From: Rhodobacter capsulatus SB 1003
GTDB lineage: Bacteria > Pseudomonadota > Alphaproteobacteria > Rhodobacterales > Rhodobacteraceae
Direction: 5' to 3'
Assembly (NCBI RefSeq): GCF_000021865.1
Contig: NC_014034.1
Location: 1,800,001-1,832,000 of the forward strand
DNA: 32,000 nt
Part shown: piece after piece, positions 353-32,000 of the stretch
Numbering within the stretch: position 1 is the first letter of the stretch
Layout of the letters: every line of letters starts with the position of its first letter
The notes under the pieces: model-generated
The model's input: only the letters and a program-made list of their open reading frames with translations
The model's database searches: none
What the model was told of the DNA's origin: nothing
Translations under genes and position numbers: made by a program

Positions 353-420
353 TTAACCAGACCCGCAGGAATATAGGAAAATGCGAACTACTCTCAACCC
401 TTGGCTAAACCCAGCGTTAA
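353..420. promoter_or_regulatory. mnmA/sciP divergent control region with CtrA-type motifs
   Basis: TTAA is rare in this GC-rich DNA, yet this 126-bp spacer has TTAACCAG (353-360), a 7/8 match to the CtrA 8-mer TTAACCAT. It also has TAAA-N7-TTAA (406-420), one mismatch from the TTAA-N7-TTAA box. Motif match only, no binding data. Confidence 0.35.
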
Positions 421-466
421 GGCCCTCGGCGCATTCTGCCCCCATGAAGACGAGGGGGGTGAGCCC

Positions 467-745: not shown

Positions 746-783
746 GTTGCAAATGAACGGAATCCTGCGACAGTAACTACGTG

Positions 784-791
784 TTAACCAT
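784..791 (+). promoter_or_regulatory. Perfect CtrA 8-mer half-site TTAACCAT upstream of ctrA (possible autoregulation)
   Basis: TTAACCAT at 784-791, about 50 nt upstream of the ctrA ATG (841). A second TTAA lies at 822-825. Sequence match only. Confidence 0.4.
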
Positions 792-840: not shown

Positions 841-1554
841 ATGCGGATTTTGTTGGTGGAGGACGACCCGACGACCTCTCGCAGCATCGAGCTGATGCTG
901 ACCCATGCCAACCTCAACGTCTACTGCACCGACCTCGGTGAAGAAGGCATCGACCTTGCCAAGCTTTACGATTACGACCTGATCCTTCTCGATCTGAACC
1001 TTCCCGACATGAACGGGCTCGAGGTGCTGCGTCAGTTGCGTCTGGCTCGTGTCGACACGCCGATTCTGATCCTGACCGGTGCCGATGACACCGAGAACAA
1101 GATCAAGGGCTTCGGCTTTGGCGCCGATGATTACATGACGAAGCCCTTCCATCGCGAAGAGCTGGTGGCCCGGATCCATGCGATCATCCGCCGCTCGAAG
1201 GGGCATTCGCAGTCGATCATCCGCACCGGCAAGATCTCGGTCAACCTCGACGCCAAGACGGTGGAAGTGGGCGGCAAGCCGGTGCATCTGACCGGCAAGG
1301 AATACCAGATGCTGGAGCTGCTCAGCCTGCGCAAGGGCACGACGCTGACCAAGGAGATGTTCCTCAACCATCTTTACGGCGGCATGGACGAGCCCGAGCT
1401 GAAGATCATCGACGTCTTCATCTGCAAGCTGCGCAAGAAGCTGGCCGAAGTCACCGGCGGAGAGAATTACATCGAGACCGTCTGGGGCCGGGGCTATGTG
1501 CTGCGGGACCCTGATCAGGGCGACCTTGACCGCCGCATGGTCGTGGGCGCCTGA
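841..1554 (+). CDS. ctrA: Cell-cycle response regulator CtrA (OmpR family)
   Basis: 237 aa. Receiver domain MRILLVEDD...[13 protein letters not shown] contains the phospho-Asp. The winged-helix C-terminal domain carries [12 protein letters not shown]...[19 protein letters not shown] lies 8 nt upstream. Sequence and sciP adjacency match alphaproteobacterial CtrA. Confidence 0.92.
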
Positions 1555-18496: not shown

Positions 18497-18499
18497 AGG

Positions 18500-18532
18500 A
18501 AAACCCCGGCTTCGTCCGGGGTTTTTTCTTTT
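18500..18532 (+). terminator. Rho-independent terminator ending the fab-mltG unit; left boundary of the GTA locus
   Basis: AAAACCCCGG-CTTCGT-CCGGGGTTTT followed by TTCTTTT, starting 4 nt after the mltG stop. Confidence 0.8.
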
Positions 18533-18559
18533 CAGCGGGTGCAACCCTGAATATAGCAC

Positions 18560-18588
18560 TTGACTTTGCGAACGCTTCAAGGTAGAGA
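18560..18588 (+). promoter_or_regulatory. Candidate sigma-70-type promoter of the GTA cluster
   Basis: TTGACT (18560-18565), a 17-nt spacer, then TAGAGA (18583-18588), inside a locally AT-richer island (18548-18600). The -10 is weak, which is compatible with activator dependence. Motif inspection only. Confidence 0.3.
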
Positions 18589-18688
18589 TAAGGCATGCTA
18601 GGAGAGGTGGGCAAGCGCCGCGGGTGACCGTGTGCGCTTTTTTCATTTCGCTCGTGCGGACAGGCATGAGAGGCGGGTCACGCAAGAC

Positions 18689-19012
18689 ATGGACATGGGG
18701 TTCAAGGGTGGGGACGCTCCTCCGGTGGATTTGCTGGAGGAGACGGAGGAGCTTTATCGGGAAATTGCCGGGGAACTGGCCCTGGCGATGAAAGGGGTTC
18801 GCCAGGGCGAGGCGAAGGAGGCCAAGGCCGCCGCGCAGGCGGTCAAGGACCTTCGCGCGGCGTTCCAGATGGTGATGGAAGAAAGGGTGCGTGTTGAAAA
18901 ACTTCGCAGACAAGTTGCCGGTGTCGGAGCCGGAAGCGAGCTTGACCTGGACGCCGCCCGGGCTGAGATCGGGCGCCGCCTGGCTTGCCTGCGCGACGCC
19001 GCAGGAGGTTGA
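18689..19012 (+). CDS. g1: GTA g1, small terminase-like protein
   Basis: The track ORF starts at GTG 18632. I prefer ATG 18689 (MDMGFKGGDAPPVDLLEETEELYREI...), giving 107 aa. It is a small, helical, charged protein directly upstream of and overlapping TerL, which is the TerS position. The start is uncertain (18632, 18689 or 18695). Confidence 0.6.
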   Translation: MDMGFKGGDAPPVDLLEETEELYREIAGELALAMKGVRQGEAKEAKAAAQAVKDLRAAFQMVMEERVRVEKLRRQVAGVGAGSELDLDAARAEIGRRLACLRDAAGG

Positions 19013-20309
19013 CGCCTTTCTGGGGGGGCTTGGGAACAATGCGCTTTTGGCGCTGCCCTGGATTTTCGAATTCTGGGCGCTGCCGCATCAGCTGCCCCCG
19101 GTGGGGGCGTGGAAAAGCTGGGTGATCATGGGCGGGCGCGGCGCGGGCAAGACCCGGGCCGGGGCGGAATGGGTGCGGATGCAGGTCGAGGGGGCGGGTC
19201 CGGCCGATGCCGGGCCCGCGCATCGGGTGGCGCTGGTGGGCGAGACCTTTGATCAGGTGCGCGACGTGATGATTTTCGGCGAGAGCGGGATTTTGGCCTG
19301 TTCTCCGCCGGACCGGCGCCCGGAGTGGGAGGCGACGAAGCGGCGGCTGGTCTGGGCGAATGGCGCGACGGCGCAGGCCTATTCGGCGCAGGAGCCCGAG
19401 GCGCTGCGCGGGCCGCAATTCGACGCCGCCTGGGTCGACGAGCTGGCGAAATGGAGACGGGCCGAGGAGACCTGGGACATGCTGCAATTCGCGCTGCGGC
19501 TGGGCAAGCATCCGCAGCAGGTGATCACCACGACGCCGCGCAATGTGGGGGTGCTGAAGGCGATCCTCAACAACCCCTCGACGGTGGTGACGCATGCGCC
19601 GACCGAGGCGAACCGGGCCTATCTGGCGGAAAGCTTCCTGGCCGAGGTGCAGGCGCGCTATGCGGGCACGCGGCTGGGGCGGCAGGAGCTGGAGGGGGTT
19701 CTGCTGGAGGATGTCGAGGGGGCGCTTTGGACGACGGCGCAGCTGGAGGGGCTGCGGCTGGCGTCGCCGCCTGCGATGGACCGGGTGGTGGTAGCGCTCG
19801 ATCCGGCGGTGACGGGCGGCGCGGGGTCGGATGAATGCGGGATCGTCGTGGCGGGGGCTGTGACGCGCGGGCCGGTGCAGGACTGGCGGGCCTTTGTGCT
19901 CGAAGATGCCTCGGTCCGGGGGCGGCCGACCGACTGGGCGCGGGCGGCGATTGCGGCGATGGAGCGCTGGGGCGCCGAGAAGCTGGTGGCCGAGGTCAAT
20001 CAGGGCGGCGAGATGGTCGAAAGCGTGCTGCGCCAGATCGATCCGCTGGTGCCGTTCAAGGCGCTGCGGGCGTCGCGGGGGAAATCGGCGCGGGCCGAGC
20101 CGGTCGCCGCTTTGTATGAGCAGGGCCGGGTGAAGCATTGCCGCGACGGGCGGCTGGGCGCCCTGGAGGATCAGATGTGCCGCATGACGGTGCGAGGCTA
20201 TGCGGGCAAGGGCTCGCCCGACCGGGTCGATGCGCTGGTCTGGGCGATGACGGAATTGATGATCGAGCCCGCGGCGCATTGGCGGAGGCCGCAGGTGCGC
20301 GGGCTTTGA
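18891..20309 (+). CDS. g2: GTA g2, large terminase subunit
   Basis: 472 aa. Walker A VIMGGRGAGKTRAG, Walker B-like AWVDELAKW, C-terminal nuclease fold region. There is no in-frame ATG upstream of Walker A, so initiation is at GTG 18891 or TTG 18894, where a GAAAGGG SD-like run lies at 18881-18887. It overlaps g1 by 122 nt. Confidence 0.85.
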   Translation: MLKNFADKLPVSEPEASLTWTPPGLRSGAAWLACATPQEVDAFLGGLGNNALLALPWIFEFWALPHQLPPVGAWKSWVIMGGRGAGKTRAGAEWVRMQVEGAGPADAGPAHRVALVGETFDQVRDVMIFGESGILACSPPDRRPEWEATKRRLVWANGATAQAYSAQEPEALRGPQFDAAWVDELAKWRRAEETWDMLQFALRLGKHPQQVITTTPRNVGVLKAILNNPSTVVTHAPTEANRAYLAESFLAEVQARYAGTRLGRQELEGVLLEDVEGALWTTAQLEGLRLASPPAMDRVVVALDPAVTGGAGSDECGIVVAGAVTRGPVQDWRAFVLEDASVRGRPTDWARAAIAAMERWGAEKLVAEVNQGGEMVESVLRQIDPLVPFKALRASRGKSARAEPVAALYEQGRVKHCRDGRLGALEDQMCRMTVRGYAGKGSPDRVDALVWAMTELMIEPAAHWRRPQVRGL

Positions 20310-20319
20310 GCGCGCAAGG

Positions 20320-20370
20320 GCGTATTTGGACCAGGAAAAAGCTGCGTGTTTTTTCTTGGTGAAAATACGC
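20320..20370. repeat. 51-bp palindromic intergenic repeat, copy 3 (inside the GTA operon, g2-g3 spacer)
   Basis: GCGTATTTGGACCAGGAAAAAGCTGCGTGTTTTTTCTTGGTGAAAATACGC, starting 10 nt after the g2 stop. The A-to-G change in the left arm (CCAGG versus CCAAG) still pairs as G-U with the right arm. Confidence 0.85.
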
Positions 20371-20423
20371 CACGGGGGTGCGGGGGTGTGAAACCCCCGC
20401 TTCTGCCGCGGAAATCTGGTCGA

Positions 20424-20455
20424 AAGGGTCGGGGTTTTCCCGGCCCTTTTTCTTT
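20424..20455 (+). terminator. Intrinsic-terminator-like hairpin between g2 and g3
   Basis: AAGGGTCGGG-GTTTT-CCCGGCCCTT: a 10-bp stem with one G-U pair, followed by TTTTCTTT. It is preceded by a second hairpin, GCGGGGG-N7-CCCCCGC (20380-20400). Confidence 0.5.
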
Positions 20456-20494
20456 GGCCGGGGCCTTGGGCCGGGCCGCGACGAGGAGAACGGG

Positions 20495-21685
20495 ATGGGA
20501 CTGAATTTCTTTCGCAAGGCGGCCCCGGAGGTGCGGACGGAACCGGTGGCCGAGCGCAAGGCCTCGGTGACGGGGCGGATCGTGGCGATGGCCTCGGGGG
20601 CGGGGCGGCCGGTCTGGGGGCCGCGCGACACGGTCAGTCTGATGCGCACGGGGTTTGCGGGCAATCCGGTCGGGTTTCGCTCGGTCAAGCTGATCGCGGA
20701 GGCGACGGCGGCGGTGCCCTTGATCTGTCAGGATGCCGAGCGGCGCTATGAGATCCATCCGGTTCTGGATCTGCTTCGCCGTCCGAATGCCGGGCAGGGC
20801 CGGGCGGAGCTGTTCGAGGCGCTGATCGGGCAGATCCTGCTGTCGGGGAATGGCTATCTGGAGGCGGTCTGTCCCGAGCCCGGCGTGCCGAGAGAGCTGC
20901 ATGTGCTGCGATCGGACCGGATGGCGGTGGTGCCCGGGGCGGATGGCTGGCCGGTGGGCTATGATTACACCGTGGGCGGGCGCAAGCATCGCTTCGACAT
21001 GACCGGCCATCCCGATCCGATCTGTCATATCAAGAGCTTCCATCCGACCGATGACCATTACGGGCTGAGCCCGATGCAGGCGGCGGCGGTGGCTTTGGAC
21101 GTGCATAACGCGGCAAGCGCCTGGTCGAAGGCGCTTTTGGACAATGCCGCGCGGCCCAGTGGCGCGATCATTTACAAGGGCGCCGACGGGCAGGGGGTGC
21201 TGGCGCCCGAGCAATATGAGCGGCTCATTTTCGAGATGGAGACGCATCATCAGGGCGCGCGGAATGCCGGGCGGCCGATGCTTTTGGAAGGCGGGCTCGA
21301 CTGGAAGCCGATGGGGTTTTCCCCCTCCGACATGGAGTTTCACGAGACGAAGGCGGCGGCGGCGCGGGAGATCGCGCTCGCCTTCGGGGTGCCGCCGATG
21401 CTGATCGGCATTCCGGGCGATGCGACCTATGCCAATTACGCCGAGGCGAACCGGGCGTTTTACCGCCTGACGGTGCTGCCGCTTCTGACCCGGGTTTCGG
21501 CGGCGCTGGCCTGGTGGCTTTCGGGGTATCTGGGCGCGCAGATCGAGCTGAAGCCCGATCTGGATCAGGTGCCGGCGCTGGCGGTGGAGCGGGACCAGCT
21601 TTGGGCGCGGATCGGCGCGGCGGGGTTTCTTTCGAACAGCGAAAAACGGGTGCTGCTGGGGCTGCCTCCGACGGCTGAGGGCTGA
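20495..21685 (+). CDS. g3: GTA g3, portal protein (HK97 family)
   Basis: 396 aa from ATG 20495, with GAGGAG SD at 20483-20488 and 6-nt spacing. The track start 20378 would translate through the hairpins. The sequence has the character of an HK97-type portal (...GNPVGFRSVKLIAEA...LLSGNGYLE...HYGLSPMQAA...AFGVPPMLIGIPGDATYANYAEANRAFY...). Confidence 0.9.
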   Translation: MGLNFFRKAAPEVRTEPVAERKASVTGRIVAMASGAGRPVWGPRDTVSLMRTGFAGNPVGFRSVKLIAEATAAVPLICQDAERRYEIHPVLDLLRRPNAGQGRAELFEALIGQILLSGNGYLEAVCPEPGVPRELHVLRSDRMAVVPGADGWPVGYDYTVGGRKHRFDMTGHPDPICHIKSFHPTDDHYGLSPMQAAAVALDVHNAASAWSKALLDNAARPSGAIIYKGADGQGVLAPEQYERLIFEMETHHQGARNAGRPMLLEGGLDWKPMGFSPSDMEFHETKAAAAREIALAFGVPPMLIGIPGDATYANYAEANRAFYRLTVLPLLTRVSAALAWWLSGYLGAQIELKPDLDQVPALAVERDQLWARIGAAGFLSNSEKRVLLGLPPTAEG

Positions 21686-21688
21686 GGC

Positions 21689-21922
21689 ATGGTGGTGGGG
21701 GGGTCGCGGTTTCTCAAGGAGCCCTTCGAGGTGCATGAGCAGCGCTTCGAGGCGACCGAGCGGATCATGGAGTTGCAGTTCACCCAGGTGGAGCGGCGGC
21801 TTGAGCGCATCGAGGTGATGATCGAGCGGCTGGAAAAGCGTTTGTTCATGACGGTTTACGGCGTGATCGCCGTGATCCTGACGCAGGCGGTGCAGGGCAT
21901 TCTGGACTATGCCCCGAAGTGA
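21689..21922 (+). CDS. g3.5: GTA g3.5, small coiled-coil protein with a C-terminal hydrophobic helix
   Basis: 77 aa. A heptad-like charged segment ERIMELQFTQVERRLERIEVMIERLEKRL is followed by FMTVYGVIAVILTQAVQGIL. It is packed tightly between portal and protease, 3 nt after the portal stop. Confidence 0.6.
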   Translation: MVVGGSRFLKEPFEVHEQRFEATERIMELQFTQVERRLERIEVMIERLEKRLFMTVYGVIAVILTQAVQGILDYAPK

Positions 21923-21932
21923 GGAGCGAGGA

Positions 21933-22487
21933 ATGAAGAGAGGCGAGAGCGGGCTGGAGCGGAAGTTCTGCGGCGCGCAGCCGGTGCAGCTGCAGGACGG
22001 CGCGCGGATCGAGGGCTATGCGAGCCTTTTCGGTCTGCCCGATCAGGGCGGCGATGTGGTGGCGAAGGGGGCTTACGCGAAAAGCCTGGCGGCGATTGCG
22101 GCGCGGGGGGGCAGCGTGAAGATGCTGTGGCAGCATGACCCGGCGCAGCCGATCGGCGTTTGGGACGAGATCCGGGAGGATGCGCGCGGGCTTTGGGTCA
22201 AGGGGCGGCTGTTGCCCGAGGTGGCGCGGGCGCGCGAGGCCTTGGCGCTGATCGCGGCGGGGGCGATCGACGGGCTGTCGATCGGATATCGCACCATCGC
22301 CGCCGAGAAGGACGCAAAGGGCCAGCGGCTGCTTGCGGAACTGGAGCTTTGGGAAGTGTCGCTGGTGACATTCCCGATGCTTCGCGAGGCGCGGGTGGCG
22401 GCGAAGGGGGAAGCCCCCGAGGCCGCGATCTGGCGTGATCTGGCCCGGGCGCTGAGCGCTGCCACGGCCGAACTGGCGGCGCGCTGA
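21933..22487 (+). CDS. g4: GTA g4, prohead maturation protease (HK97/S78 family)
   Basis: 184 aa from ATG 21933, which has GAGGAG SD at 21921-21926 and lies after the g3.5 stop. The track start 21909 overlaps g3.5. IEGYASLFG..D..GDVV..GAY..SL......VKMLWQHD...PIGVW....ED..GL.V.G.L...... is the HK97 protease pattern. Confidence 0.85.
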   Translation: MKRGESGLERKFCGAQPVQLQDGARIEGYASLFGLPDQGGDVVAKGAYAKSLAAIAARGGSVKMLWQHDPAQPIGVWDEIREDARGLWVKGRLLPEVARAREALALIAAGAIDGLSIGYRTIAAEKDAKGQRLLAELELWEVSLVTFPMLREARVAAKGEAPEAAIWRDLARALSAATAELAAR

Positions 22488-22518
22488 GCCCCGCCGCTGC
22501 TGCAGGAGTGTGGAAAGG

Positions 22519-23715
22519 ATGAAGACCGAGACCAAGGCTCGGGCCGGAACGGGCATGCCTGAGGGCGCCGATCCGGTTGCCGAGGTGAAAACCGCGCTGG
22601 CCGGTTTCCTGAAGGAAGTCAAAGGCTTTCAGGATGATGTGAAGACGAGATTGCAACAACAGGAAGAGCGTGTGACCATGCTGCAAACGAAGACCTATGC
22701 CGGGCGTCATGCCCTTGCCGCCGCCGCGACCGAGGAGGCGCCGCATCAGAAGGCCTTTGCCGCCTATCTGCGCACCGGCGATGATGACGGGCTGCGCGGG
22801 CTGAGCCTTGAGGGCAAGGCGCTGAATTCGGCGGTGGCGGCCGAGGGCGGTTATCTGGTCGATCCGCAGACCTCGGAGACGATCCGGGGGGTTTTGCGCT
22901 CGACCGCCTCGCTGCGCCAGATCGCCAGTGTCGTCAATGTCGAGGCGACCTCGTTCGATGTGCTGGTGGACAAGACCGACATGGGCTCGGGCTGGGCGAG
23001 CGAGACGGCGGCGCTGAGCGAGACCGCGACGCCGCAGATCGACCGCATCACCATTCCGCTGCATGAGCTGGCGGCGATGCCGAAGGCATCGCAACGGCTG
23101 CTCGATGACAGCGCCTTTGACATCGAGACCTGGCTGGCGAACCGGATTGCCGACAAGTTCGCCCGGGCGGAGGCGGCGGCCTTCATCTCGGGTGACGGGG
23201 TGGACAAGCCGACCGGGTTCCTGACCAAGACCAAGGTGGCGAATGGCGCCTGGGCCTGGGGCAGCCTTGGCTATGTGGCGACCGGCGCGGCGGGGGATTT
23301 CGCGGCGGTGAATGCCTCCGATGCGGTCGTGGATCTGGTCTATGCGCTCGGCGCCGAATACCGGGCGAATGCGAGCTTCGTGATGAATTCGAAGACCGCG
23401 GGGGCGGTGCGCAAGATGAAGGATGCCGACGGCCGGTTCCTGTGGGCCGACAGTCTGGCGGCGGGGGAACCGGCGCGGCTGATGGGCTATCCGGTGCTGA
23501 TCGCCGAGGACATGCCCGATATCGCGGCCAATGCCTATGCGATTGCCTTTGGCGATTTCGGCAATGGCTACACGATTGCGGAACGCCCGGATCTGCGGGT
23601 GCTGCGTGACCCGTTCTCGGCCAAGCCGCATGTGCTCTTCTATGCGAGCAAGCGGGTGGGCGGCGATGTCAGCGATTTCGCCGCGATCAAGCTGTTGAAG
23701 TTTGCCGCCTCGTAA
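22519..23715 (+). CDS. g5: GTA g5, major capsid protein (HK97 fold) with N-terminal delta/scaffold region
   Basis: 398 aa from ATG 22519 (the track starts at GTG 22510). The N-terminal ~100 aa are charged and coiled (FLKEVKGFQDDVKTRLQQQEERV). The remainder matches HK97-family capsids (...GGYLVDPQTSE...IPLHELAAMPKASQRLLDDSAFDIETWL...FVMNSKTAGAVRKMKD..G.FLW...). Confidence 0.9.
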   Translation: MKTETKARAGTGMPEGADPVAEVKTALAGFLKEVKGFQDDVKTRLQQQEERVTMLQTKTYAGRHALAAAATEEAPHQKAFAAYLRTGDDDGLRGLSLEGKALNSAVAAEGGYLVDPQTSETIRGVLRSTASLRQIASVVNVEATSFDVLVDKTDMGSGWASETAALSETATPQIDRITIPLHELAAMPKASQRLLDDSAFDIETWLANRIADKFARAEAAAFISGDGVDKPTGFLTKTKVANGAWAWGSLGYVATGAAGDFAAVNASDAVVDLVYALGAEYRANASFVMNSKTAGAVRKMKDADGRFLWADSLAAGEPARLMGYPVLIAEDMPDIAANAYAIAFGDFGNGYTIAERPDLRVLRDPFSAKPHVLFYASKRVGGDVSDFAAIKLLKFAAS

Positions 23716-23887
23716 CGGGCGGTGAAGGGGCCGGGGGCAACCCGGCTGCCGCCGGTTCGCCGGTCGGGCGGGCGCGGGCTTCCGGCCGCTGCCTAGCTGC
23801 TCCCTCCGTCCGAGTGGCGGTGCGGGGTCTGCGCCCGAACGCCCAAGTGCAGGACCGCGGGGGCGGTCGGCTTTTCGGAGAGTTTCC

Positions 23888-24481
23888 ATGATGCTGAACG
23901 AAGTGACGGCGGTGCCCGGGACGGCGCTGCCGGTGGCCGAATTCCGCGACCATCTGCGGTTGGGCACCGGCTTTGCCGATCTGGGGGCCGAGGATGCGGC
24001 GCTGCTGTCCTATCTGCGGGCGGCCATTGCGGCGATCGAAGGGCGCACGGCCAAGGCGCTGATTTCCCGGGGCTTTCGGCTGGCTCTGACGGCCTGGCGC
24101 TGGGGTGACATGCAGACCTTGCCGATTGCGCCCGTGGCGACGGTGACGGCCTTGCGGCTGGTCGATGCGGCGGGGGTCGAGACGCCGGTGGCGGCGGGCT
24201 GGCGGCTGGTGCCCGACATGGCGCGGCCGCGGATCGAGGCTTTGGGGGCGATGCTGCCGATGATCCCTACGGGCGGGCGGGTCGAGATCGACTTCACCGC
24301 CGGGTTCGGGGCCAGTTGGAGCGCGCTGCCGGTTGATCTGGCGCAGGCGGTGTTCCTGCTGGCGGCGCAATATTACGAGCTGCGCCATGACGGGGCGGCC
24401 GAGGGCGGCGCGATGCCCTTTGGGGTGATGGCGCTGATCGAGCGCTGGCGCACGGTGCGGGTGCTGGGGGGACGGCCATGA
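23888..24481 (+). CDS. g6: GTA g6, head-tail adaptor (gp6-like connector)
   Basis: 197 aa. GGAGAG SD upstream. Position and length fit the phage gp6-like head-tail connector (...LSYLRAAIAAIEGRTAKALI...LAQAVFLLAAQYYELR...). Confidence 0.75.
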   Translation: MMLNEVTAVPGTALPVAEFRDHLRLGTGFADLGAEDAALLSYLRAAIAAIEGRTAKALISRGFRLALTAWRWGDMQTLPIAPVATVTALRLVDAAGVETPVAAGWRLVPDMARPRIEALGAMLPMIPTGGRVEIDFTAGFGASWSALPVDLAQAVFLLAAQYYELRHDGAAEGGAMPFGVMALIERWRTVRVLGGRP

Positions 24482-24816
24482 GCAGGCCGCGGCTGAACCG
24501 CCTGCTGGTGCTGGAAGAGGCCGTGCGCGTGGCCGATGGCGCGGGCGGGCACCGGCTGGACTGGCAGGCGAAGGGCGAGGTCTGGGCCGAGGTCACGGCG
24601 GGCAGCGGCAGCGAGCGGGCGGGGGAATTCGTCACGCTGGCCTCGGTGCCGTTCACCATCGTCGTGCGGGCGGCGCCGGTGGGCGCGGCGCGCAGGCCCA
24701 GGCCCGAGCAGCGCTTTCGCGAGGGGGCGCGGATCTTTCGCATCCTTGCCGTCGCCGAGCGCGACCGCGAGGGGCATTACCTGAGCTGCTTTGCCCGCGA
24801 GGAGGTGGTGGCATGA
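24478..24816 (+). CDS. g7: GTA g7, head-closure/stopper protein (SPP1 gp16-like head-tail joining family)
   Basis: 112 aa. ATGA overlap with g6. The pattern ...W...VWAEV...SG.E.......S...F.I.VR........R......RIF.I... is typical of the head-tail joining family. Confidence 0.75.
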   Translation: MSRPRLNRLLVLEEAVRVADGAGGHRLDWQAKGEVWAEVTAGSGSERAGEFVTLASVPFTIVVRAAPVGAARRPRPEQRFREGARIFRILAVAERDREGHYLSCFAREEVVA

Positions 24817-25220
24817 GCTATGCGGTGGCGGGCGCGCTGCAGGCGGCGGTCTATCAGCAGCTGCGGGCGGATGCGGTGCTGGCGGCGCTGGTGGGAACGG
24901 CGGTTTACGATGCTGTGCCGCCGGGGCCCTTGGCGGGCACCTATGTCAGCCTTGGGCCCGAGGATGTCGCCGATGCCTCGGACAAGACCGGCGCGGGGGC
25001 GGTGCATGATTTCGTCATCTCGGTGATCACCGACGCGGCGGGATTTGCCACGGCGAAGGCGGCGGCGGCGGCTGTATCCGATGCGCTGGTGGGGGCCGAT
25101 CTGGTGCTGAGCCGCGGGCGGCTGGTGGGGCTGTGGTTCCTGCGCGCCAAGGCGCGGCGGGTGGAAAAGGCCGACATGCGGCGGATTGACCTTGTGTTTC
25201 GCGCGCGGGTCGAGGGCTGA
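24813..25220 (+). CDS. g8: GTA g8, tail terminator / tail completion protein (DUF3168-like)
   Basis: 135 aa. ATGA overlap with g7. Assigned from position before the major tail gene and from size. Confidence 0.7.
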   Translation: MSYAVAGALQAAVYQQLRADAVLAALVGTAVYDAVPPGPLAGTYVSLGPEDVADASDKTGAGAVHDFVISVITDAAGFATAKAAAAAVSDALVGADLVLSRGRLVGLWFLRAKARRVEKADMRRIDLVFRARVEG

Positions 25221-25260
25221 GGCCTTTGGGCGGTGAAATTTCAACATCTGGAGTGACGAC

Positions 25261-25674
25261 ATGGCGGCGCAGAACGGCAAGGACCTTCTGATCAAGCTCG
25301 ACCTGACCGGGTCGGGGCAATTCGAGACCATCGCGGGGCTGCGTGCGACGCGGATCAGCTTCAATGCGGAGACGGTCGATGTGACCTCGCTGGAAAGTCA
25401 GGGCGGCTGGCGGGAATTGCTGGGCGGCGCTGGGGTGCGCTCGGCCAGCATTTCGGGCGCGGGGGTGTTCAAGGACGCCGATACCGACGAGCGGGCGCGG
25501 CAGATCTTTTTCGACGGCGAGGTGCCCGAGTTTCAGGTCATCATCCCCGATTTCGGCATCGTGCAGGGGCCGTTCATGATCACCTCGATCGACTATGCGG
25601 GCAGTCACAATGGCGAGGCGAGTTACGAACTGGCGATGGCCTCGGCGGGCGCGCTGAGCTTCACGGCGATCTGA
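25261..25674 (+). CDS. g9: GTA g9, major tail (tube) protein
   Basis: 137 aa. GGAG SD 7 nt upstream. MAAQNGKDLLIKLD......F..IAGLR...ISFN.E.VDVT...S.G.WRELL.G.G..S..ISG.GVF is the TP901-1-like major tail pattern. Confidence 0.85.
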   Translation: MAAQNGKDLLIKLDLTGSGQFETIAGLRATRISFNAETVDVTSLESQGGWRELLGGAGVRSASISGAGVFKDADTDERARQIFFDGEVPEFQVIIPDFGIVQGPFMITSIDYAGSHNGEASYELAMASAGALSFTAI

Positions 25675-25681
25675 GGCGGGC

Positions 25682-26008
25682 ATGGCAAACCCTTGGGCGG
25701 GCGAGGTCGAGATCTGGCTGGGCGCCGAGCGGCGGGTGGCGAAGCTGACGCTGGGGGCGCTCGCGGAGCTGGAGGTGGGGCTGGGCGAGGCCTCGCTTCT
25801 GGATCTGGTGCGGCGGTTCGAGACGGGCGCGTTTTCCAGCCGCGACGTGCTGGCGCTGATCGTGGCGGGGCTGCGTGGCGGCGGTTGGGAGGGGCGGACG
25901 GAGGATCTGCGCACGGTCGAGATCGGCGGCGGGCCGGTCGGTGCGGCGCGGATCGCGGCGGAATTGCTGGCGCGCGCCTTCACCGTGCCGGGGCAGGGCG
26001 GATCGTGA
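25682..26008 (+). CDS. g10: GTA g10, tail assembly chaperone-like protein
   Basis: 108 aa. The position between the tube and tape-measure genes is the lambda G equivalent. Confidence 0.65.
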   Translation: MANPWAGEVEIWLGAERRVAKLTLGALAELEVGLGEASLLDLVRRFETGAFSSRDVLALIVAGLRGGGWEGRTEDLRTVEIGGGPVGAARIAAELLARAFTVPGQGGS

Positions 26009-26232
26009 GCGGCGGTCTGGACTGGCCGGGGCTGTTGCGGGTCGGGCTGCGGGGGCTGGGGCTGCGGCCCGGGGAGTTCTGGCGGCTGACGCCCGCGGAG
26101 CTGGCGGTGATGCTGGGCGAGGCGGCGGGGGCGCCGCCGCTGACGCGCGACCGGCTTTCGGAGCTGGCGGCGCGGTTTCCCGATACGCCCCGCGGGGGCG
26201 ATCTGAAAGGAGGAGGCGATGGTCGAGGTTGA
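26005..26232 (+). CDS. g10.1: GTA g10.1, second small tail-assembly ORF in the -1 frame
   Basis: GTG 26005 overlaps the g10 stop (GTGA). Product is 75 aa: VSGGLDWPGLLRVGLRGLGLRPGEFWRLTPAELAVMLGEAAGAPPLTRDRLSELAARFPD... It forms the 3' part of track ORF 25693-26232 and overlaps the g11 start by 14 nt. Confidence 0.55.
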   Translation: MSGGLDWPGLLRVGLRGLGLRPGEFWRLTPAELAVMLGEAAGAPPLTRDRLSELAARFPDTPRGGDLKGGGDGRG

Positions 26233-26878
26233 CGGGCTGGACGGGCTGGGCCGACAGGCGGCGGAACTGGAGCGGGCGCTGGGGGGCGCCGAGGGGGTGG
26301 CGGCCAGTTTCAGCGACGAGCTGGGGCGGATGCGCGAAAGCCTGACCTATACCGGCCGCGAGGTGGGGACGCTGTCGTCCAGTTTCGGGCGGTCGCTGCG
26401 GCGGGCTTTTGATGGCGTCGTCTTTGACGGGATGAAGCTGTCGGACGCGCTGAAGACGCTCGCCGAGGGGATGTCGCAGGCGGCCTATTCGGTGGCGATG
26501 AAGCCGGTGCAGGAGGCGGTGGGCGGGGCGCTGGCCAGCACGGTGAACGGGCTTTTGGGAAGCGTTTTCGGTTTTGCGCAGGGCGGGGCGTTTTCGCAAG
26601 GCCGGGTGATGCCCTTTGCCAAGGGGGGGGTGGTGTCCTCGCCCACGAGCTTTCCGATGCGGGGGGCGACGGGGCTGATGGGCGAGGCCGGGCCCGAGGC
26701 GATCTTGCCGCTTGCGCGGGCTGCGGACGGGCGGCTGGGCGTGCAGGCGGGCGGCGGGCGGGTCGTCAATGTGGTGATGAACGTGACGACGCCCGATGCC
26801 GCCGGGTTTGCGCGCTCTCAGGGCCAGATCGCGGCACAGGTGAACCGGCGGCTGGCGCGCGGATCGCGCAACGCCTGA
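26219..26878 (+). CDS. g11: GTA g11, tape measure protein (unusually short)
   Basis: 219 aa. Very strong SD AGGAGGAGG (26207-26215). Helical N-terminal half, Gly/Ala-rich middle, and the conserved block MGEAGPEAILPL typical of tape-measure C-terminal regions. Confidence 0.75.
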   Translation: MVEVDGLDGLGRQAAELERALGGAEGVAASFSDELGRMRESLTYTGREVGTLSSSFGRSLRRAFDGVVFDGMKLSDALKTLAEGMSQAAYSVAMKPVQEAVGGALASTVNGLLGSVFGFAQGGAFSQGRVMPFAKGGVVSSPTSFPMRGATGLMGEAGPEAILPLARAADGRLGVQAGGGRVVNVVMNVTTPDAAGFARSQGQIAAQVNRRLARGSRNA

Positions 26879-26888
26879 GGAGAAAAGC

Positions 26889-27521
26889 ATGGCATTTCAT
26901 GAAGTTCGGTTTCCCGCCAATCTGAGTTTCGGCTCGGTCGGCGGGCCGGAGCGGCGCACCGAGATCGTCACGCTGTCGAGCGGGCATGAGGAGCGCAACA
27001 GCCCCTGGGCGCATTCGCGGCGGCATTATGATGCCGGGGTGGGGCTGCGATCCTTGGATGATGTCGAGCGGCTGATCGCGTTTTTCGAGGCGCGGGGCGG
27101 GCAGTTGCACGGCTTTCGCTGGAAGGACTGGGCGGATTTCAAGAGCTGTCCGGCCTCGCGCGCCGTCGCGCATGAGGATCAGCTGATCGGGATGGGCGAT
27201 GGTGTCACGACGGCGTTTCAGCTGGTGAAGACCTATGTCTCGGGCGGGCAGAGCTATCTGCGCCCGATCGTGAAGCCGGTCGAGGGCACGGTGAAGCTGG
27301 GCATTGCGGGCGATCATCAGGCCGAGGCGGTGAATTTTGCCGTCGATCATGCCACCGGGATCGTCAGTTTCAACGAACCGCCGCCGCAGGGGGCGCGGGT
27401 GACGGCGGGGTTCGAATTCGACGTGCCGGTGCGGTTTGATACCGACCGGATCGCGGTTTCGGTGCAGTCGTTTCAGGCGGGGGATCTGCCGCAGGTGCCG
27501 GTGGTGGAGGTGCGGATCTGA
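26889..27521 (+). CDS. g12: GTA g12, distal tail protein (DUF2460 family)
   Basis: 210 aa. MAFHEVRFPANLSFGSVGGPERRTEIVTLSSGHEERNSPWAHSRRHYDAG matches the conserved N-terminus of the GTA/phage DUF2460 family. GAGGAG SD upstream. Confidence 0.8.
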   Translation: MAFHEVRFPANLSFGSVGGPERRTEIVTLSSGHEERNSPWAHSRRHYDAGVGLRSLDDVERLIAFFEARGGQLHGFRWKDWADFKSCPASRAVAHEDQLIGMGDGVTTAFQLVKTYVSGGQSYLRPIVKPVEGTVKLGIAGDHQAEAVNFAVDHATGIVSFNEPPPQGARVTAGFEFDVPVRFDTDRIAVSVQSFQAGDLPQVPVVEVRI

Positions 27522-28411
27522 TGGCCTATCCGGAGAGTTTGAAGGCGCATCTGCAGGGCGGTGTGACGACGCTGGCGCGGGCCTGGGCCCTGGCGCGGGC
27601 GGATGGGCGGGTGCTGGGCTTCACCGATCATGATGTGGTGCTGCGCTTCGACGGGATCTCCTTCGAGCCGGGCAGCGGCATGACGGCCAAGGCGGTGCTG
27701 CAGGGCACCGGGCTTTCGGTCGACAATACCGAGAGCTATGGCGCGTTGAGCTCCGAGGCGATCACCGAGGCGGATCTTCTGGCCGGGCGCTATGATGGCG
27801 CGGCGGTCACGGTCTGGCTGGTGAACTGGGCCGATCCGGCGATGCGGGCGGTGATCTTTCGCGGCCATCTGGGGGAGGTGTCGCGCGGCGCGGGGGCGTT
27901 CACGGCCGAGCTGCGCGGGCTGACCGCGGCTTTGGGGCAGGAGCAGGGGCGGATCTATCATCCGCGCTGCGCCGCAGTGCTGGGCGATGGCAGGTGCCGG
28001 TTCGATCTGACGAAGGACGGTTATGCGCTGGAGGCGGCGCTGGGCGGCGTTGACGAGGCGGTGGTGTTGCGCCTGGCCGAGGGCGCCGGGTTCGAGGATC
28101 GCTGGTTCGAGAAGGGGCGGCTGGTGGTGCTGGATGGCGCTGCGGCGGGTCTGATCGGCGTGGTGAAGAACGACCGGTTGCAGGCGGATGGATCACGGCT
28201 GATCGAGCTTTGGCAGCGGCTGGGGGCCAATCCGGTGGCAGGGGATCGGGTGCGGATCGAGCCGGGTTGCGACAAGCGCGCCGGGACCTGTCGGCTCAAA
28301 TTCGACAATTTCCTCAATTTTCGGGGATTTCCGCATATTCCGGGGGAAGACTGGATGGTGTCCTATCCGGTGCAGAGCGGCACCAATGACGGCGGGAGCC
28401 TGTTTCGATGA
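27521..28411 (+). CDS. g13: GTA g13, baseplate hub protein (DUF2163 plus BR0599-like domain)
   Basis: 296 aa. TGATG overlap with g12. ...TTLARAWALARADGRVLGFTDHD..L.FDGI.FEP..G...... and the C-terminal CDKRAGTCRLKFDNFLNFRGFPHIPG Cys-rich motif are typical of this family. Confidence 0.8.
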   Translation: MAYPESLKAHLQGGVTTLARAWALARADGRVLGFTDHDVVLRFDGISFEPGSGMTAKAVLQGTGLSVDNTESYGALSSEAITEADLLAGRYDGAAVTVWLVNWADPAMRAVIFRGHLGEVSRGAGAFTAELRGLTAALGQEQGRIYHPRCAAVLGDGRCRFDLTKDGYALEAALGGVDEAVVLRLAEGAGFEDRWFEKGRLVVLDGAAAGLIGVVKNDRLQADGSRLIELWQRLGANPVAGDRVRIEPGCDKRAGTCRLKFDNFLNFRGFPHIPGEDWMVSYPVQSGTNDGGSLFR

Positions 28412-28860
28412 GCGCGGTCGGGCTGCGGGCGGTGGCGATCGCGCGGGACTGGATCGGCACGCCTTACCGGCATCAGGTCTCGGTGCGGGGCGCGGGGACG
28501 GATTGTCTTGGGCTTTTGCGCGGGGTCTGGCGCGCGCTTTATGGCGCCGAGCCGGAGCTGGTGCCGCCCTATACGGCCGATTGGTCCGAGCCTGCGCGCG
28601 AGGAAGTGCTGTGGCGGGCGGCGGCGCGGCATCTGGTGGCGCTGCCCGTCGGGGCGGGGCCCGAGCGTCCGGGCGAGGTGCTGCTGTTTCGGATGCGCCA
28701 TGGCGCGGTGGCCAAGCATCTGGGCATCGCGGCCGAGATCGGCGCCGGGGCGAGTTTCGTGCATGCCTATACGGGGCATGGCGTGGTCGAAAGCCCGCTG
28801 TCCGAGCCCTGGGCGCGGCGGATCGTGGCGCGGTTTCAATTTCCTGAGGGGGGCCGGTGA
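28408..28860 (+). CDS. g14: GTA g14, NlpC/P60-family cell-wall peptidase
   Basis: 150 aa. ATGA overlap with g13. WIGTPYRHQ....GTDCLGLLRGVW holds the catalytic Cys. KHLGI and HAY provide His candidates. Confidence 0.85.
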   Translation: MSAVGLRAVAIARDWIGTPYRHQVSVRGAGTDCLGLLRGVWRALYGAEPELVPPYTADWSEPAREEVLWRAAARHLVALPVGAGPERPGEVLLFRMRHGAVAKHLGIAAEIGAGASFVHAYTGHGVVESPLSEPWARRIVARFQFPEGGR

Positions 28861-31800
28861 ATGGCGACGATACTGCTTTCGGCGGCGGGGGCCGCGATTG
28901 GCGGTGGCTTTGGCGGCACGGTTCTGGGCCTTTCGGGGGCGGTGATCGGGCGGGCCGTGGGCGCCACCTTGGGGCGGGTGATCGATCAGCGCTTGCTGGG
29001 ATCGGGGTCGCAAAGTGTCGAGACCGGGCGGGTCGACCGGCTGCGGCTGTCGAGCGCCTCGGAGGGGGAGGCGGTCGGGCGGCTTTGGGGGCGGATGCGG
29101 GTCGCGGGGCAGGTGATCTGGGCGACGCGGTTCTTTGAGAGTGCCTCGGTTGAAAAGAGCGGCAAGGGTGTGCCGCGGGCGACGGTCACGAGCTACAGCT
29201 ATTCGCTGAGCCTGGCGCTGGCGCTGTGCGAGGGGGAAATCCTGCGCGTCGGTCGGGTCTGGGCGGATGGCAGCGAGATCGAGGTCTCGGGGCTGAACAT
29301 GCGGGTTTACCGGGGCGGCGAGGATCAGCTGCCCGACCCGAAGATTGCGGCGGTGGAGGGGGCGGAGGCGGCGCCCGCCTATCGCGGCATCGCCTATGTG
29401 GTGCTGGAGGATCTGCAGCTGGCCCCCTTTGGCAACCGGGTGCCGCAGTTCACCTTTGAGGTGGTGCGGGCGGCGCAAGGCGCGCTGGCGGAGGCCGAGC
29501 CCGATCTGACGCGGGGGCTGCGGGCGGTGGCGCTGATCCCGGGGACGGGGGAATATGCGCTGGCGACGACGCCGGTCTATCTTGCGACGGGCAGCGGGGT
29601 GACCGCGACGCAGGGGGTGGCGAACCAGAATGCGCCCGGGGGGCAGACCGATCTGGTCGCGGCGCTGGAGCGGCTGGACGAGGAGCTGCCGAATTGCGGG
29701 GCGGTGTCGCTGGTGGTGAGCTGGTTCGGGGACGATCTGCGCTGCGGGGCCTGCGATGTGAAGCCCAAGGTCGCCTCGGTCGCGGAGGAGGGGGCGAACA
29801 TGCCCTGGCGGGTGGCGGGGCTGGAGCGGGCGGGCGCCGAGGAGGTGCCGCGGCTTTCGGGCCAGTCGGTCTATGGCGGCACGCCCGCGGATGCGGCGGT
29901 GATCGAGGCGATCGCGGCCTTGCGGGCGGCGGGCAAGGCGGTGACGTTCTATCCTTTCATCCTGATGGCGCAGCTGGCGGGGAATGGCCTGCCCGATCCC
30001 TGGAACCCGGGGAGCGCGCAACCGGCCTTGCCCTGGCGGGGGCGGATCACGCTTTCGGTCGCGCCGGGGCGGGCGGGCAGCCCCGATGGCACGGCGGCGG
30101 CCGAGGCGCAGGTGGCGGGGTTCTTCGGCGCTGCAAGCCCGGGGGATTCCGCGATTGCGGGGGGCGAGGTGGTCTATTCCGGCCCCGAGGAATGGTCGAT
30201 GCGCCGGTTCATCCTGCATTATGCGCATCTGTGCCAGCTGGCGGGGGGCGTTGACGCCTTTTGCATCGGCACCGAGATGGTGGCGCTGACGCAGATCCGC
30301 GGCCCGAGCAACAGCTTTCCCGCGGTGGCGGCGTTCCGGCAGCTGGCGGGTGAGGTCAAGGCGATCCTGGGGCCCGGCTGCAAGATCGGCTATGCCGCCG
30401 ACTGGTCGGAATACTGGGGCTATGCGCCCGGCAATGGCGAGCGGTTCTTTCATCTGGACCCGCTTTGGGCGGATGAAAACATCGACTTCATCGGCATCGA
30501 CAATTACCTGCCGCTGTCGGATTGGCGCGATGGCGCGGATCACGCCGATGCGGGTTGGGGCTCGATCCATGCGCTGGATTACCTGCGCAGCAATATCGAG
30601 GGCGGGGAGTATTATGACTGGTTTTATGCCGCGCCCGAACATCGCGCGGCGCAGATTCGCACGCCGATCACCGATGGCGATCACGACGAGCCCTGGATCT
30701 GGCGGGCGAAGGACCTGCGCAACTGGTGGCTGAACGACCATCACGAGCGGGTGGGGGGCCTGCGCTCGGAGGTGGCGACGGCCTGGGTGCCGCAGTCGAA
30801 GCCGATCTGGTTCACCGAGATGGGCTGCGCGGCGATCGACAAGGGCACGAACCAGCCCAACAAGTTCCTCGATCCGAAAAGCTCGGAATCGGGCCTGCCG
30901 CATCATTCCGACGGGCGGCGCGACGAGCTGATCCAGATGCAATATCTGCGCGCGATGACGGGCTACTGGGGGGAGGCGGCGAGGAACCCGGTCTCGGCGG
31001 TCTATGGCGGGCCGATGCTGGACATGAGCCGGGCGCATGTCTGGGCCTGGGATGCCCGGCCCTGGCCGCAATTTCCGCTCAACACCGCCTTGTGGTCGGA
31101 TGGCGAGAATTACGCGCGCGGGCACTGGATTTCGGGGCGCGCGGTGGCACAGCCGCTGGCGAGCGTGGTGGCCGAGATCTGCGGTGCGGCCGGGATCACG
31201 GAGATCGACGTGAGCGGGCTTTACGGGCTGGTGCGCGGCTACACGATGACGGGCGATCAGACCGGGCGCGCGGGGCTGCAGGCGCTGATGCTGGCCTATG
31301 GCTTCGAGGCGCTGGAACGCGACGGTCAGCTGGTGTTCCGGATGCGCGACGGGCGGGTGGCGGCCGATCTGGCCGCGGCGGATCTGGCGCTGGGCGAGGG
31401 CGAGGCGGTCGTCGAGACGGTGCGGGCGGCCGAGGCCGAGATCGCCGGGCGGGTGCGGCTGGCCTATGTCGAGGCGGAAGGCGATTTCGAGGTGAAGGCG
31501 GTCGAGGCGGTCTTTCCCGATGCGGCGGCGGGGGCGGCGGCGGGATCGGAGCTGTCGCTGGCGCTGACGCGGGCGCAGGCGCAGGGGATCGTCGGGCGGT
31601 GGCTGGCCGAGGCACGGGTGGCGCGGGACACGGCGCGGTTTGCGCTGCCGCCCTCGCGGGGGCATCTGGGCACGGGCGATGTGGTGCGGCTGGATCTGCC
31701 CGAGGGCAAGCGGCGCTACCGGATCGACCGGGTTGAGCAGGCGGGGCTGATCCAGGTCGAGGCGGTGCGGGTCGAGCCCGGGATCTATGCGCCCGCCGAC

Positions 31801-32000
31801 GAGGTCGAGGATCCGGCGAGCCTGCGCCCCTTTGCGGCGCCGGTGCCGGTGACGGCGGTGTTCCTGGATCTGCCGCTGATGAAAGGGGACGAGGACCCGG
31901 TTGCGCCGCATCTGGCGGTGACGGCGACGCCTTGGCCGGGGACGGTGGCGGTCTGGTCCTCGGACGAGGATGCGGGCTATGCGCTGAATGCGAGCTTGGG
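28861..32000 (+). CDS. g15: GTA g15, giant multi-domain tail-tip / host-specificity protein (truncated at the window end)
   Basis: Absent from the track because no stop occurs before position 32000. The frame starting at ATG 28861, directly after the g14 TGA, stays open for more than 1046 codons. My translation begins MATILLSAAGAAIGGGFGGTVLGLSGAVIGRAVGATLGRVIDQRLLGSGSQSVETGRVDRLRLSSASEGEAVGRLWGRMRVAGQVIWATRF... An internal region, FIGIDNYLPLSDWRDG...IWFTEMGCAAIDKGTNQPN (about 30480-30870), resembles a TIM-barrel glycoside-hydrolase-like domain. The 1182-aa ORF on the minus strand is its shadow. Confidence 0.85.
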   Translation, partial: MATILLSAAGAAIGGGFGGTVLGLSGAVIGRAVGATLGRVIDQRLLGSGSQSVETGRVDRLRLSSASEGEAVGRLWGRMRVAGQVIWATRFFESASVEKSGKGVPRATVTSYSYSLSLALALCEGEILRVGRVWADGSEIEVSGLNMRVYRGGEDQLPDPKIAAVEGAEAAPAYRGIAYVVLEDLQLAPFGNRVPQFTFEVVRAAQGALAEAEPDLTRGLRAVALIPGTGEYALATTPVYLATGSGVTATQGVANQNAPGGQTDLVAALERLDEELPNCGAVSLVVSWFGDDLRCGACDVKPKVASVAEEGANMPWRVAGLERAGAEEVPRLSGQSVYGGTPADAAVIEAIAALRAAGKAVTFYPFILMAQLAGNGLPDPWNPGSAQPALPWRGRITLSVAPGRAGSPDGTAAAEAQVAGFFGAASPGDSAIAGGEVVYSGPEEWSMRRFILHYAHLCQLAGGVDAFCIGTEMVALTQIRGPSNSFPAVAAFRQLAGEVKAILGPGCKIGYAADWSEYWGYAPGNGERFFHLDPLWADENIDFIGIDNYLPLSDWRDGADHADAGWGSIHALDYLRSNIEGGEYYDWFYAAPEHRAAQIRTPITDGDHDEPWIWRAKDLRNWWLNDHHERVGGLRSEVATAWVPQSKPIWFTEMGCAAIDKGTNQPNKFLDPKSSESGLPHHSDGRRDELIQMQYLRAMTGYWGEAARNPVSAVYGGPMLDMSRAHVWAWDARPWPQFPLNTALWSDGENYARGHWISGRAVAQPLASVVAEICGAAGITEIDVSGLYGLVRGYTMTGDQTGRAGLQALMLAYGFEALERDGQLVFRMRDGRVAADLAAADLALGEGEAVVETVRAAEAEIAGRVRLAYVEAEGDFEVKAVEAVFPDAAAGAAAGSELSLALTRAQAQGIVGRWLAEARVARDTARFALPPSRGHLGTGDVVRLDLPEGKRRYRIDRVEQAGLIQVEAVRVEPGIYAPADEVEDPASLRPFAAPVPVTAVFLDLPLMKGDEDPVAPHLAVTATPWPGTVAVWSSDEDAGYALNASL

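Follow-up and report, generated by a model that had tools for sequence, protein, structure and literature searches.

Does the series of phage-like head and tail genes in a 32,000-nucleotide (nt) stretch of the Rhodobacter capsulatus SB 1003 chromosome (contig NC_014034.1, positions 1,800,001 to 1,832,000; hereafter, the window) belong to a prophage, or to a particle producer that has come under the control of its host? The sequence comparisons point to the second answer: the locus is almost certainly a domesticated, host-controlled particle producer, namely the structural gene cluster of the R. capsulatus gene transfer agent (RcGTA). An earlier note on this DNA, made from the sequence alone, had named RcGTA g1-g15 of R. 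capsulatus and had added that the system was already described for this species; it was correct on both counts. Given that the locus is RcGTA itself, the finding is already known, and the recognition of a textbook domesticated-virus locus from raw sequence adds nothing to the knowledge of RcGTA. Two conserved RNA elements within the cluster, one in the spacer between g2 and g3 and the other in the spacer between g5 and g6, seem to be undescribed.

Identity and gene content of the cluster

The identification is carried by the match to solved particle structures. The major capsid protein encoded by g5 is 100% identical over 386 amino acids (aa) to the PDB entry 6TB9, “Major capsid protein Rcc01687”, and residues 1-1046 of the g15 product align end to end with chain 8A of the PDB entry 6TBA (2364 bits). 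A search with a concatenated query matched seven further RcGTA chains over the full length, those of the portal, adaptor, stopper, terminator, tube, distal tail and hub proteins; these seven matches score about 2.0-2.3 bits per residue, the level that is expected of identical sequences. The DNA of the window is 99.92-99.97% identical over 14.5 kb to several R. capsulatus chromosomes, several R. capsulatus chromosomes encode the exact g13 protein, and other R. capsulatus lineages, e.g., DSM 1710, show 88-94% DNA identity. The 17 genes, their order and their neighbors are the same as in RcGTA of R. capsulatus SB1003 (rcc01682-rcc01698; PDB 6TB9, 6TBA and 6TE8). Judged by these comparisons, the locus is RcGTA g1-g15 itself and not a relative, and nothing was found in the window sequence that contradicts this assignment.

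The cluster consists of 17 co-oriented genes on the + strand (18689-32000), g1 to g15 plus g3.5 and g10.1, in an unbroken series of open reading frames (ORFs) that extends from 18.6 kb to the window end, where the last ORF (ATG at 28861) runs off. All 17 ORFs are open and full length in the window, with g15 cut only by the window end; the visible part of the cluster is 13.3 kb long, and the full length from the g1 ATG to the g15 stop is about 14.1 kb. The siphovirus morphogenesis order that the earlier note had read from these ORFs is borne out by a profile search with Pfam and NCBIfam models, in which 16 of the 17 ORFs match the expected families, the exception being g1. Four of the matched models are specific for gene transfer agents (GTAs): NF048001, NF058675 (343 bits), TIGR02216 and NF048004 (1578 bits). 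The Walker A motif GGRGAGKT and all five start/stop overlaps quoted in that note are likewise present in the sequence. Gene starts were refined from the junction sequences, public gene calls and solved structures, and here the note stood only in part: its ORFs and their order hold, but g1 starts with ATG at 18689 rather than GTG at 18632, g3 starts at 20495 rather than 20378, and g4 starts at 21933.

The first genes encode the packaging and head proteins. The small terminase gene g1 (rcc01682, 18689..19012) encodes a protein of 107 aa without a Pfam or NCBIfam match; it is identified as a 324-nt ORF of the length given by Sherlock 2019 and is called in the same way in a near-identical locus (L081). 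The gene for the T4-type large terminase, g2 (rcc01683, 18891..20309; Terminase_6N, 2.6e-29; Terminase_6C, 1.9e-17), whose translation includes the Walker A motif, has an ambiguous start in public gene calls, GTG at 18891 (472 aa) or CTG at 18963 (448 aa), so that it overlaps g1 in another frame by 50-122 nt depending on the start (18891-19012). The portal protein, 396 aa, is encoded by g3 (rcc01684, 20495..21685) and matches chain 1A of 6TBA over the full length (897 bits) as well as Phage_portal (8.4e-88). It is followed by g3.5 (rcc01685, 21689..21922), a small head-formation protein recognized by NF048001, “RCAP_rcc01685 family” (116 bits); by the prohead protease gene g4 (rcc01686, 21933..22487; 184 aa; Peptidase_S78, 1.3e-30; TIGR01543), the start of which was taken from gene calls and the Shine-Dalgarno (SD) sequence; and by g5 (rcc01687, 22519..23715), the major capsid protein of 398 aa, of the HK97 family.

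The connector and tail genes follow. The full-length structure matches identify g6 (rcc01688, 23888..24481) as “Adaptor protein Rcc01688” (6TBA; also TIGR02215, head-tail connector family), g7 (rcc01689, 24478..24816) as “Stopper protein Rcc01689” (Phage_HCP, head completion), g8 (rcc01690, 24813..25220) as “Tail terminator protein Rcc01690” (Tail_completion_gp17), and g9 (rcc01691, 25261..25674) as “Tail tube protein Rcc01691”, of the TP901-1 type (Phage_tail_2, 4e-49). The next two ORFs are g10 (rcc01692, 25682..26008), a tail assembly chaperone (Phage_TAC_11, GTA-gp10, 1.2e-27), and g10.1 (rcc01693, 26005..26232), a second chaperone ORF (Phage_TAC_6, 1.1e-24; TIGR02216) that is called as a 75-aa gene. 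The tape measure gene g11 (rcc01694, 26219..26878) exceeds the cut-off of 220 bits of NF058675 (RcGTA_tape). Then come g12 (rcc01695, 26889..27521), matched full length by “Distal tail protein Rcc01695” and by DUF2460 (8.7e-92); the baseplate hub gene g13 (rcc01696, 27521..28411), matched full length by chain 7A of 6TBA (658 bits) and by TIGR02218; and g14 (rcc01697, 28408..28860), a tail NlpC/P60 peptidoglycan peptidase (TIGR02219, 174 bits; NLPC_P60, weak). The series ends with g15 (rcc01698, 28861..32000), the megatron or host-specificity protein (NF048004, GTA_megatron; GTA_TIM; Phage-tail_3), of which 1046 of 1304 aa are visible, the stop being located about 775 nt beyond the window according to the full-length copies in the loci L081-L085. 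Adjacent genes overlap through ATGA at g6/g7, g7/g8 and g13/g14, GTGA at g10/g10.1, and TGATG at g12/g13. The g10.1 ORF is in the -1 frame relative to g10, like the phage G/GT chaperone pair; a programmed -1 frameshift was considered and rejected, given that a canonical X XXY YYZ heptamer is missing and that g10.1 starts on a GTG of its own, which overlaps the g10 stop. The long antisense ORFs, the largest of 1182 aa, match no Pfam family and are taken to be shadow ORFs of a sequence with 69% G+C.

The mechanism has been established by published experiments on the same locus. The RcGTA cluster is transcribed from a single promoter upstream of g1; GafA, a dedicated activator under the control of CtrA and quorum sensing, binds this promoter and activates it. 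The g1 product, TerS, binds DNA weakly and without sequence preference and acts together with TerL (Sherlock 2019), and the two carry out non-specific headful packaging of host DNA into an oblate HK97-fold capsid with a capacity of <4.5 kb. A short siphovirus-like tail, built from the portal, adaptor, stopper, terminator, tube, short tape measure, distal tail, hub, peptidase and megatron, injects DNA into the periplasm of the recipient. Within this operon, the conserved g2-g3 terminator and the g5-g6 RNA described below would adjust expression. The disparity between packaging and cluster size that the earlier note had pointed out, and the existence of unlinked accessory loci, are both stated in the literature: the packaged DNA is about 4 kb long compared with a cluster of about 15 kb, and the unlinked loci comprise the lysis genes rcc00555/6, the head spike genes rcc01079/80, the tail fiber gene rcc00171 and gafA/rcc01866 (Hynes 2016). 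The visible 13.3 kb alone is three-fold above the packaging capacity. Because the packaged fragment of ~4 kb is far below the ~14-kb cluster, and given the unlinked loci, the element cannot transmit itself and is inherited vertically, as host genes are.

Chromosomal setting and alternative explanations

Both borders of the cluster are formed by host genes. On the left, mltG/yceG (17324..18496, + strand; “pabC” in older annotations; Pfam YceG, 1e-79; TIGR00247, MltG) ends with an intrinsic terminator at 18500..18534 (+ strand), a 10-bp GC-rich hairpin AAAACCCCGG-CTTCGT-CCGGGGTTTT followed by a T-run; this hairpin was read directly in the sequence, and the terminator scan lists the same hairpin on the - strand. 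The g1 start lies 192 nt beyond the mltG stop, and the border is thus composed, as the earlier note had it, of the mltG terminator and then the promoter region. Farther upstream the window contains the host genes fabF, acpP, fabG, fabD, glnA, glnB, nnr, hisI, recG and ligA. On the right, loci with 99.9% identity continue with g16/rcc01699 (DUF7742), cysE, the acyltransferase gene plsC and cdsA, beyond which the pyruvate dehydrogenase (pdh) genes are encoded on the opposite strand. This agrees with the literature, in which pabC (yceG) and cysE are the universal flanks of such clusters (Hynes 2016), with yceG directly before g1, g16 and cysE1 downstream, and no att sites (Sherlock & Fogg 2022). 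Dinoroseobacter shibae DsGTA and Ruegeria pomeroyi RpGTA, both of type I, have the same gene order and families, again with cysE downstream; across other Rhodobacterales type I clusters, g15 and the portal protein are 55-90% identical to those of the window. Among the species-level loci with enough downstream sequence, 66 of 69 have a co-oriented cysE no more than 6 kb from g15, and in 59 the distance is at most 1.2 kb, a count that concerns the downstream side only. The same chromosomal context in 66 of 69 species argues for vertical inheritance and not for integration.

The obvious alternative is an HK97-like siphovirus prophage, intact or recently decayed, with its lifestyle genes located just past position 32000. 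Every gene of the cluster is indeed a phage structural homolog in phage order, and the locus shares with HK97 and TP901-1-type modules the HK97 portal, the S78 protease, the capsid, the TP901-1 tube and the head-connector-tail order; furthermore, more than 120 such clusters are filed as viral contigs in IMG/VR. What decides is the sequence on either side. No integrase, repressor, replication or lysis module, of the kind that these phages carry, was detected in the 18.5 kb upstream or in the ~5.6 kb past g15 in near-identical strains. The inspection of sequence beyond 32000 that had been suggested finds, in the near-identical loci, only g16, cysE, the acyltransferase gene, cdsA and pdh, and on the left the cluster adjoins mltG and, beyond it, fab and gln genes. 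The two other negative features expected from the first reading are upheld: there is no att-type direct repeat, the longest exact word common to both borders being 10 nt and the repeat families found in the window being low-identity GC-rich matches only, and no tRNA gene adjoins the cluster, the sole tRNA of the window, tRNA-Leu at 8511-8593, being 10 kb away (an Rfam scan of the whole window at the gathering threshold gave this tRNA only). The composition is host-like, as had been noticed, with a GC content of 0.69 in the cluster vs 0.66 in the flanking genes, G+C at third codon positions of 0.84 vs 0.83, and a correlation of relative synonymous codon usage of r = 0.92. To this are added the conserved context across species and the identity of the proteins to those of an experimentally defined GTA; compared with HK97 and TP901-1-type phages, RcGTA has an oblate capsid holding <4.5 kb and a very short tape measure of 219 aa, and it is host-regulated and vertically inherited. 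The prophage explanation is already refuted by the right flank of the near-identical strains and retains hardly any credibility. Still less can be said for a tailocin or another DNA-free particle, to which we assign a negligible probability: the tail and baseplate module of the cluster is indeed complete and includes a cell-wall peptidase, but next to it stand intact genes for TerS, TerL, the portal, the prohead protease and the major capsid protein. Tailocins lack head and packaging genes. Gene content and context thus exclude both the prophage and the tailocin.

A different question is whether the cluster, although intact in appearance, might be silent or defective in the source strain and yield no particles. 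Several observations bear on this question and, more generally, limit how far the window can be equated with a functional RcGTA locus. Four window positions deviate, at shared sites, from five near-identical R. capsulatus assemblies. At 26849-50 the window has CG where all five assemblies have GC, which changes codon 211 of g11 (R in the window vs A); at 30149 it has C where all five have T, which changes a codon of g15 (S vs F); and at 23740, in the g5-g6 spacer, it is 1 nt shorter than the four assemblies that cover this site. Because of the amino-acid changes in g11 and g15, these two proteins may not be strictly identical to functional alleles. These differences may be peculiarities of an older reference sequence, or else errors or private changes of the source record. 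Further limits are that the function is read by identity to a characterized locus, that the accessory loci gafA, ghsA/B, rcc00171 and rcc00555/6 are located outside the window, and that near-identical strains supply the right border and the final 258 codons of g15.

The private differences, i.e., the R/A change at g11 codon 211, the S/F change in g15 and the 1-nt deletion in the g5-g6 spacer, are what a silent cluster would have in its favor, together with the existence of non-producer R. capsulatus isolates as described in PMC3924369. Against this stand the 17 open, full-length ORFs, the match of the capsid and eight other proteins to the particle structures, and the intact promoter region, ctrA and sciP; moreover, known non-production is usually regulatory or results from loci elsewhere. 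A silent cluster finds no positive support, and we consider it very improbable. The preferred interpretation remains that of the RcGTA structural cluster. A separate set of differences concerns one of the near-identical loci, L081 (CP198954.1), which has five A-to-G differences from the window (at 21546, 23066, 24784, 26162 and 29719), all of them changing GAGCTG to GGGCTG, a pattern suggestive of systematic base-calling errors at a methylated motif.

Conserved RNA elements in the g2-g3 and g5-g6 spacers

Between g2 and g3 there is a spacer of 185 nt (20310-20494) that the earlier gene coordinates concealed, as they let the portal ORF begin inside it, at an in-frame GTG (20378). The spacer folds at -100.8 kcal/mol, with z = -5.5 relative to shuffled sequence. 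At 20423..20455 (+ strand), 40 nt before the g3 ATG, it contains a terminator-like hairpin with a GC-rich stem of 8-11 bp and a 5-nt loop, followed by a U5CU3 tract. This element has the form of an intrinsic terminator, that is, a GC-rich hairpin directly followed by a U-tract on the transcribed strand. A terminator scan of 17000-32000 on the + strand yields two matches, of which this one lies between cluster genes and the other is a weak hairpin in the g1 leader.

Comparison of 76 GTA clusters from IMG/VR, retrieved via the portal protein, reveals that a g2-g3 spacer of 56-280 nt is present in all of them. A strict scan for a hairpin with a T-tract is passed by 40 of the 76 spacers on the + strand, which corresponds to a density of 3.7 per kb of spacer vs 0.021 per kb in the rest of the loci (a ~175-fold difference) and 0.09 per kb in the spacer when its opposite strand is scanned. 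A T-run of at least four is found in 69 of the 76 spacers, and a GC-rich hairpin is located just upstream of it in nearly all of the 65 distinct segments. When 57 distinct hairpins are aligned, 94.4% of the cells are paired, and both sides of the pair are changed in 100 cells, compared with 37.5 in shuffles; each of the three inner pairs has 27-32 such double-sided changes. Covariation scores 0.468 in this alignment vs 0.245 in the shuffled ones, and none of 500 shuffles attains the former value. The aligned segments were picked as the best hairpin before the T-run of each spacer, a choice that favors pairing, whereas the strict scan with its internal control is free of this bias.

The upstream part of the spacer contains further elements on the + strand: a long hairpin, HP1 (20319-20371); a conserved AAATAC block (20363-20368); and a small, near-invariant hairpin, HP2 (20380-20400), of the form GCGGGGG-UGUGAAA-CCCCCGC, upstream of the terminator-like hairpin. 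In 18 of the 76 clusters, which make up a Rhodobacter/Paracoccus-like clade, AAATAY is found exactly 19 nt before HP2 and is near-invariant, and 18 of the 19 matches to the combined AAATAY and HP2 pattern in 549 kb are located in the g2-g3 spacer. One possibility is that this block acts as a nut-like site; another is that it belongs to an internal promoter or a leader. Other Rhodobacterales type I clusters also have a terminator-like g2-g3 hairpin and a structured g5-g6 spacer; those of the Roseobacter type are without the AAATAY and HP2 block.

A parallel is provided by Caulobacter crescentus CcGTA, which has a homologous head-tail cluster with an early terminator that the polymerase has to pass. 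The two CcGTA activators correspond by homology to different parts of GafA, GafY to the N-terminal and GafZ to the C-terminal one, and GafZ enables RNA polymerase to read through the terminator after the first CcGTA gene; the authors of the GafZ study, and a Bartonella preprint, suggested that GafA might be an antiterminator as well. The two arrangements differ in form and place: in CcGTA, three GC-rich direct repeats of 150 bp make up the terminator behind the first gene, whereas in the window one canonical hairpin with a U-tract stands behind the second. They also differ in that CcGTA uses GafYZ for antitermination, whereas in R. capsulatus antitermination by GafA has, as far as the search showed, only been proposed. 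The two main papers on RcGTA regulation make no mention of a terminator, and no published mapping of a terminator in an RcGTA-type cluster was found in a literature search that covered few papers from subscription journals, so that a prior mention is possible. The g2-g3 terminator is thus a candidate cis-target of the proposed GafA antitermination, and the hairpin with its U-tract provides a defined sequence that makes this proposal directly testable.

The second element is located in the g5-g6 spacer (23716-23887, 172 nt). Folded as a single sequence, this spacer gives no signal (z = -0.04), and the structure emerged only by comparison. A spacer of 129-237 nt with near-invariant blocks is kept in 76 of 79 clusters, and the alignments predict a structured RNA at 23764..23840 (+ strand) in which two stacked helices, P1 and P2, cap an invariant loop of ~19 nt, UAGCUGCUCCCUCCGUCCGA. 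In the Rhodobacter-type class, 96.6% of the cells are paired, compared with 33-49% when the partners are slid, and double-sided changes occur in 9 of the 20 pairs, a number that was reached in 0 of 500 shuffles. Many of the pairs are G-U, which would be A-C mismatches on the other strand, and this indicates that it is the + strand RNA that folds. From 28 sequences we built a covariance model and ran it against 1.5 Mb, in which independent loci from Rhodobacter, Paenirhodobacter, Dinoroseobacter, Ruegeria, Roseovarius, Rhodovulum and Haematobacter were included. Each of its 36 matches is on the + strand in the g5-g6 spacer; the one in the window covers 23764-23840 with 79 bits. Roseobacter-type clusters have an equivalent two-helix architecture with another invariant loop core, CUGUCCGCGCGCGC instead of UAGCUGCUCCCUCCGUCCGA, and a T-tract often follows the outer helix. 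The RNA has no Rfam family, a permissive scan of 23600-24000 gave only matches at chance level, and no published description of it was found.

Three other readings of this spacer were considered and set aside. A coding function was judged unlikely from the alignments, in which a 21-mer is invariant at every position and the flanking lengths vary between clusters. Pairing of the loop (CUCCCUCC...UCCGA) with the SD region of g6 (UCGGAGA) is possible in terms of complementarity in both classes, but the partner is inconsistently placed in the Roseobacter-type clusters. Finally, a sigma-54 reading of the class B loop region is not compatible with the GG-GC spacing, which is 15 and not 12.

Our best guess for the g5-g6 RNA is a role in processing, stability or translation, by which it would set the ratio of head to tail products; together with the g2-g3 terminator it probably tunes expression within the operon. 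The complete scheme, in which these are two apparently undescribed conserved cis-RNAs, the g2-g3 terminator and the nut-like HP2 forming the target of GafA antitermination, such that g3-g15 but not g1-g2 would depend on a GafA-modified RNA polymerase, and the g5-g6 RNA being a control element for processing, stability or translation, is possible but somewhat doubtful, and is offered tentatively. The g5-g6 RNA is also a candidate new cis-regulatory motif specific to GTA clusters that could mark GTAs as distinct from prophages. In IMG/VR, the more than 120 RcGTA-like clusters filed as viral contigs (L086-L165) include many of about 14 kb, that is, of the length of the cluster, so that GTAs are routinely counted there as proviruses.

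Promoter, host regulators and other genes of the window

The RcGTA promoter region maps to 18560..18613 (+ strand), with TTGACT at 18560-18565. The published probe bound by GafA in an electrophoretic mobility shift assay covers the segment 76-125 nt upstream of the g1 ATG and has the -35 and -10 elements and the transcription start (Fogg 2019; Sherlock & Fogg 2022); counted from the g1 ATG, it corresponds to 18564-18613. A sigma-70 promoter scan gave no + strand match in the vicinity of g1 or within the cluster; such a scan is uninformative for this organism. Between the promoter region and the g1 ATG, the g1 leader contains a weak 5-bp hairpin followed by TTTTTT (18619-18644).

Two host regulators of GTA production, ctrA and sciP, are encoded 17 kb upstream of the cluster; ctrA is required for RcGTA production, and sciP has been linked to GTA control. 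The sciP gene (401..745, + strand), for an inhibitor of CtrA, matches Pfam DUF1153 (3.5e-39, from residue 23) and NF051866, CtrAInhibSciP (124.6 bits against a cut-off of 100). The response regulator gene ctrA (841..1554, + strand) matches NF045991, RespRegCtrARhodob (440 bits against a cut-off of 350), and contains the Response_reg and Trans_reg_C domains. In its promoter, at 773..788 (+ strand), is a CtrA box, GTAAC-N6-TTAAC. This motif matches nowhere else in the window, where 0.06 matches would be expected by chance, and it is the one given for the ctrA promoter by Fogg 2019.

The left part of the window also contains genes for a Hint-domain protein and a chemoreceptor. At 9396-10957 on the - strand, the YjeF N-terminal epimerase and the C-terminal dehydratase are encoded in two overlapping ORFs in different frames; the two halves of the NAD(P)H-hydrate repair enzyme are thus either encoded by separate genes or split by a frameshift.

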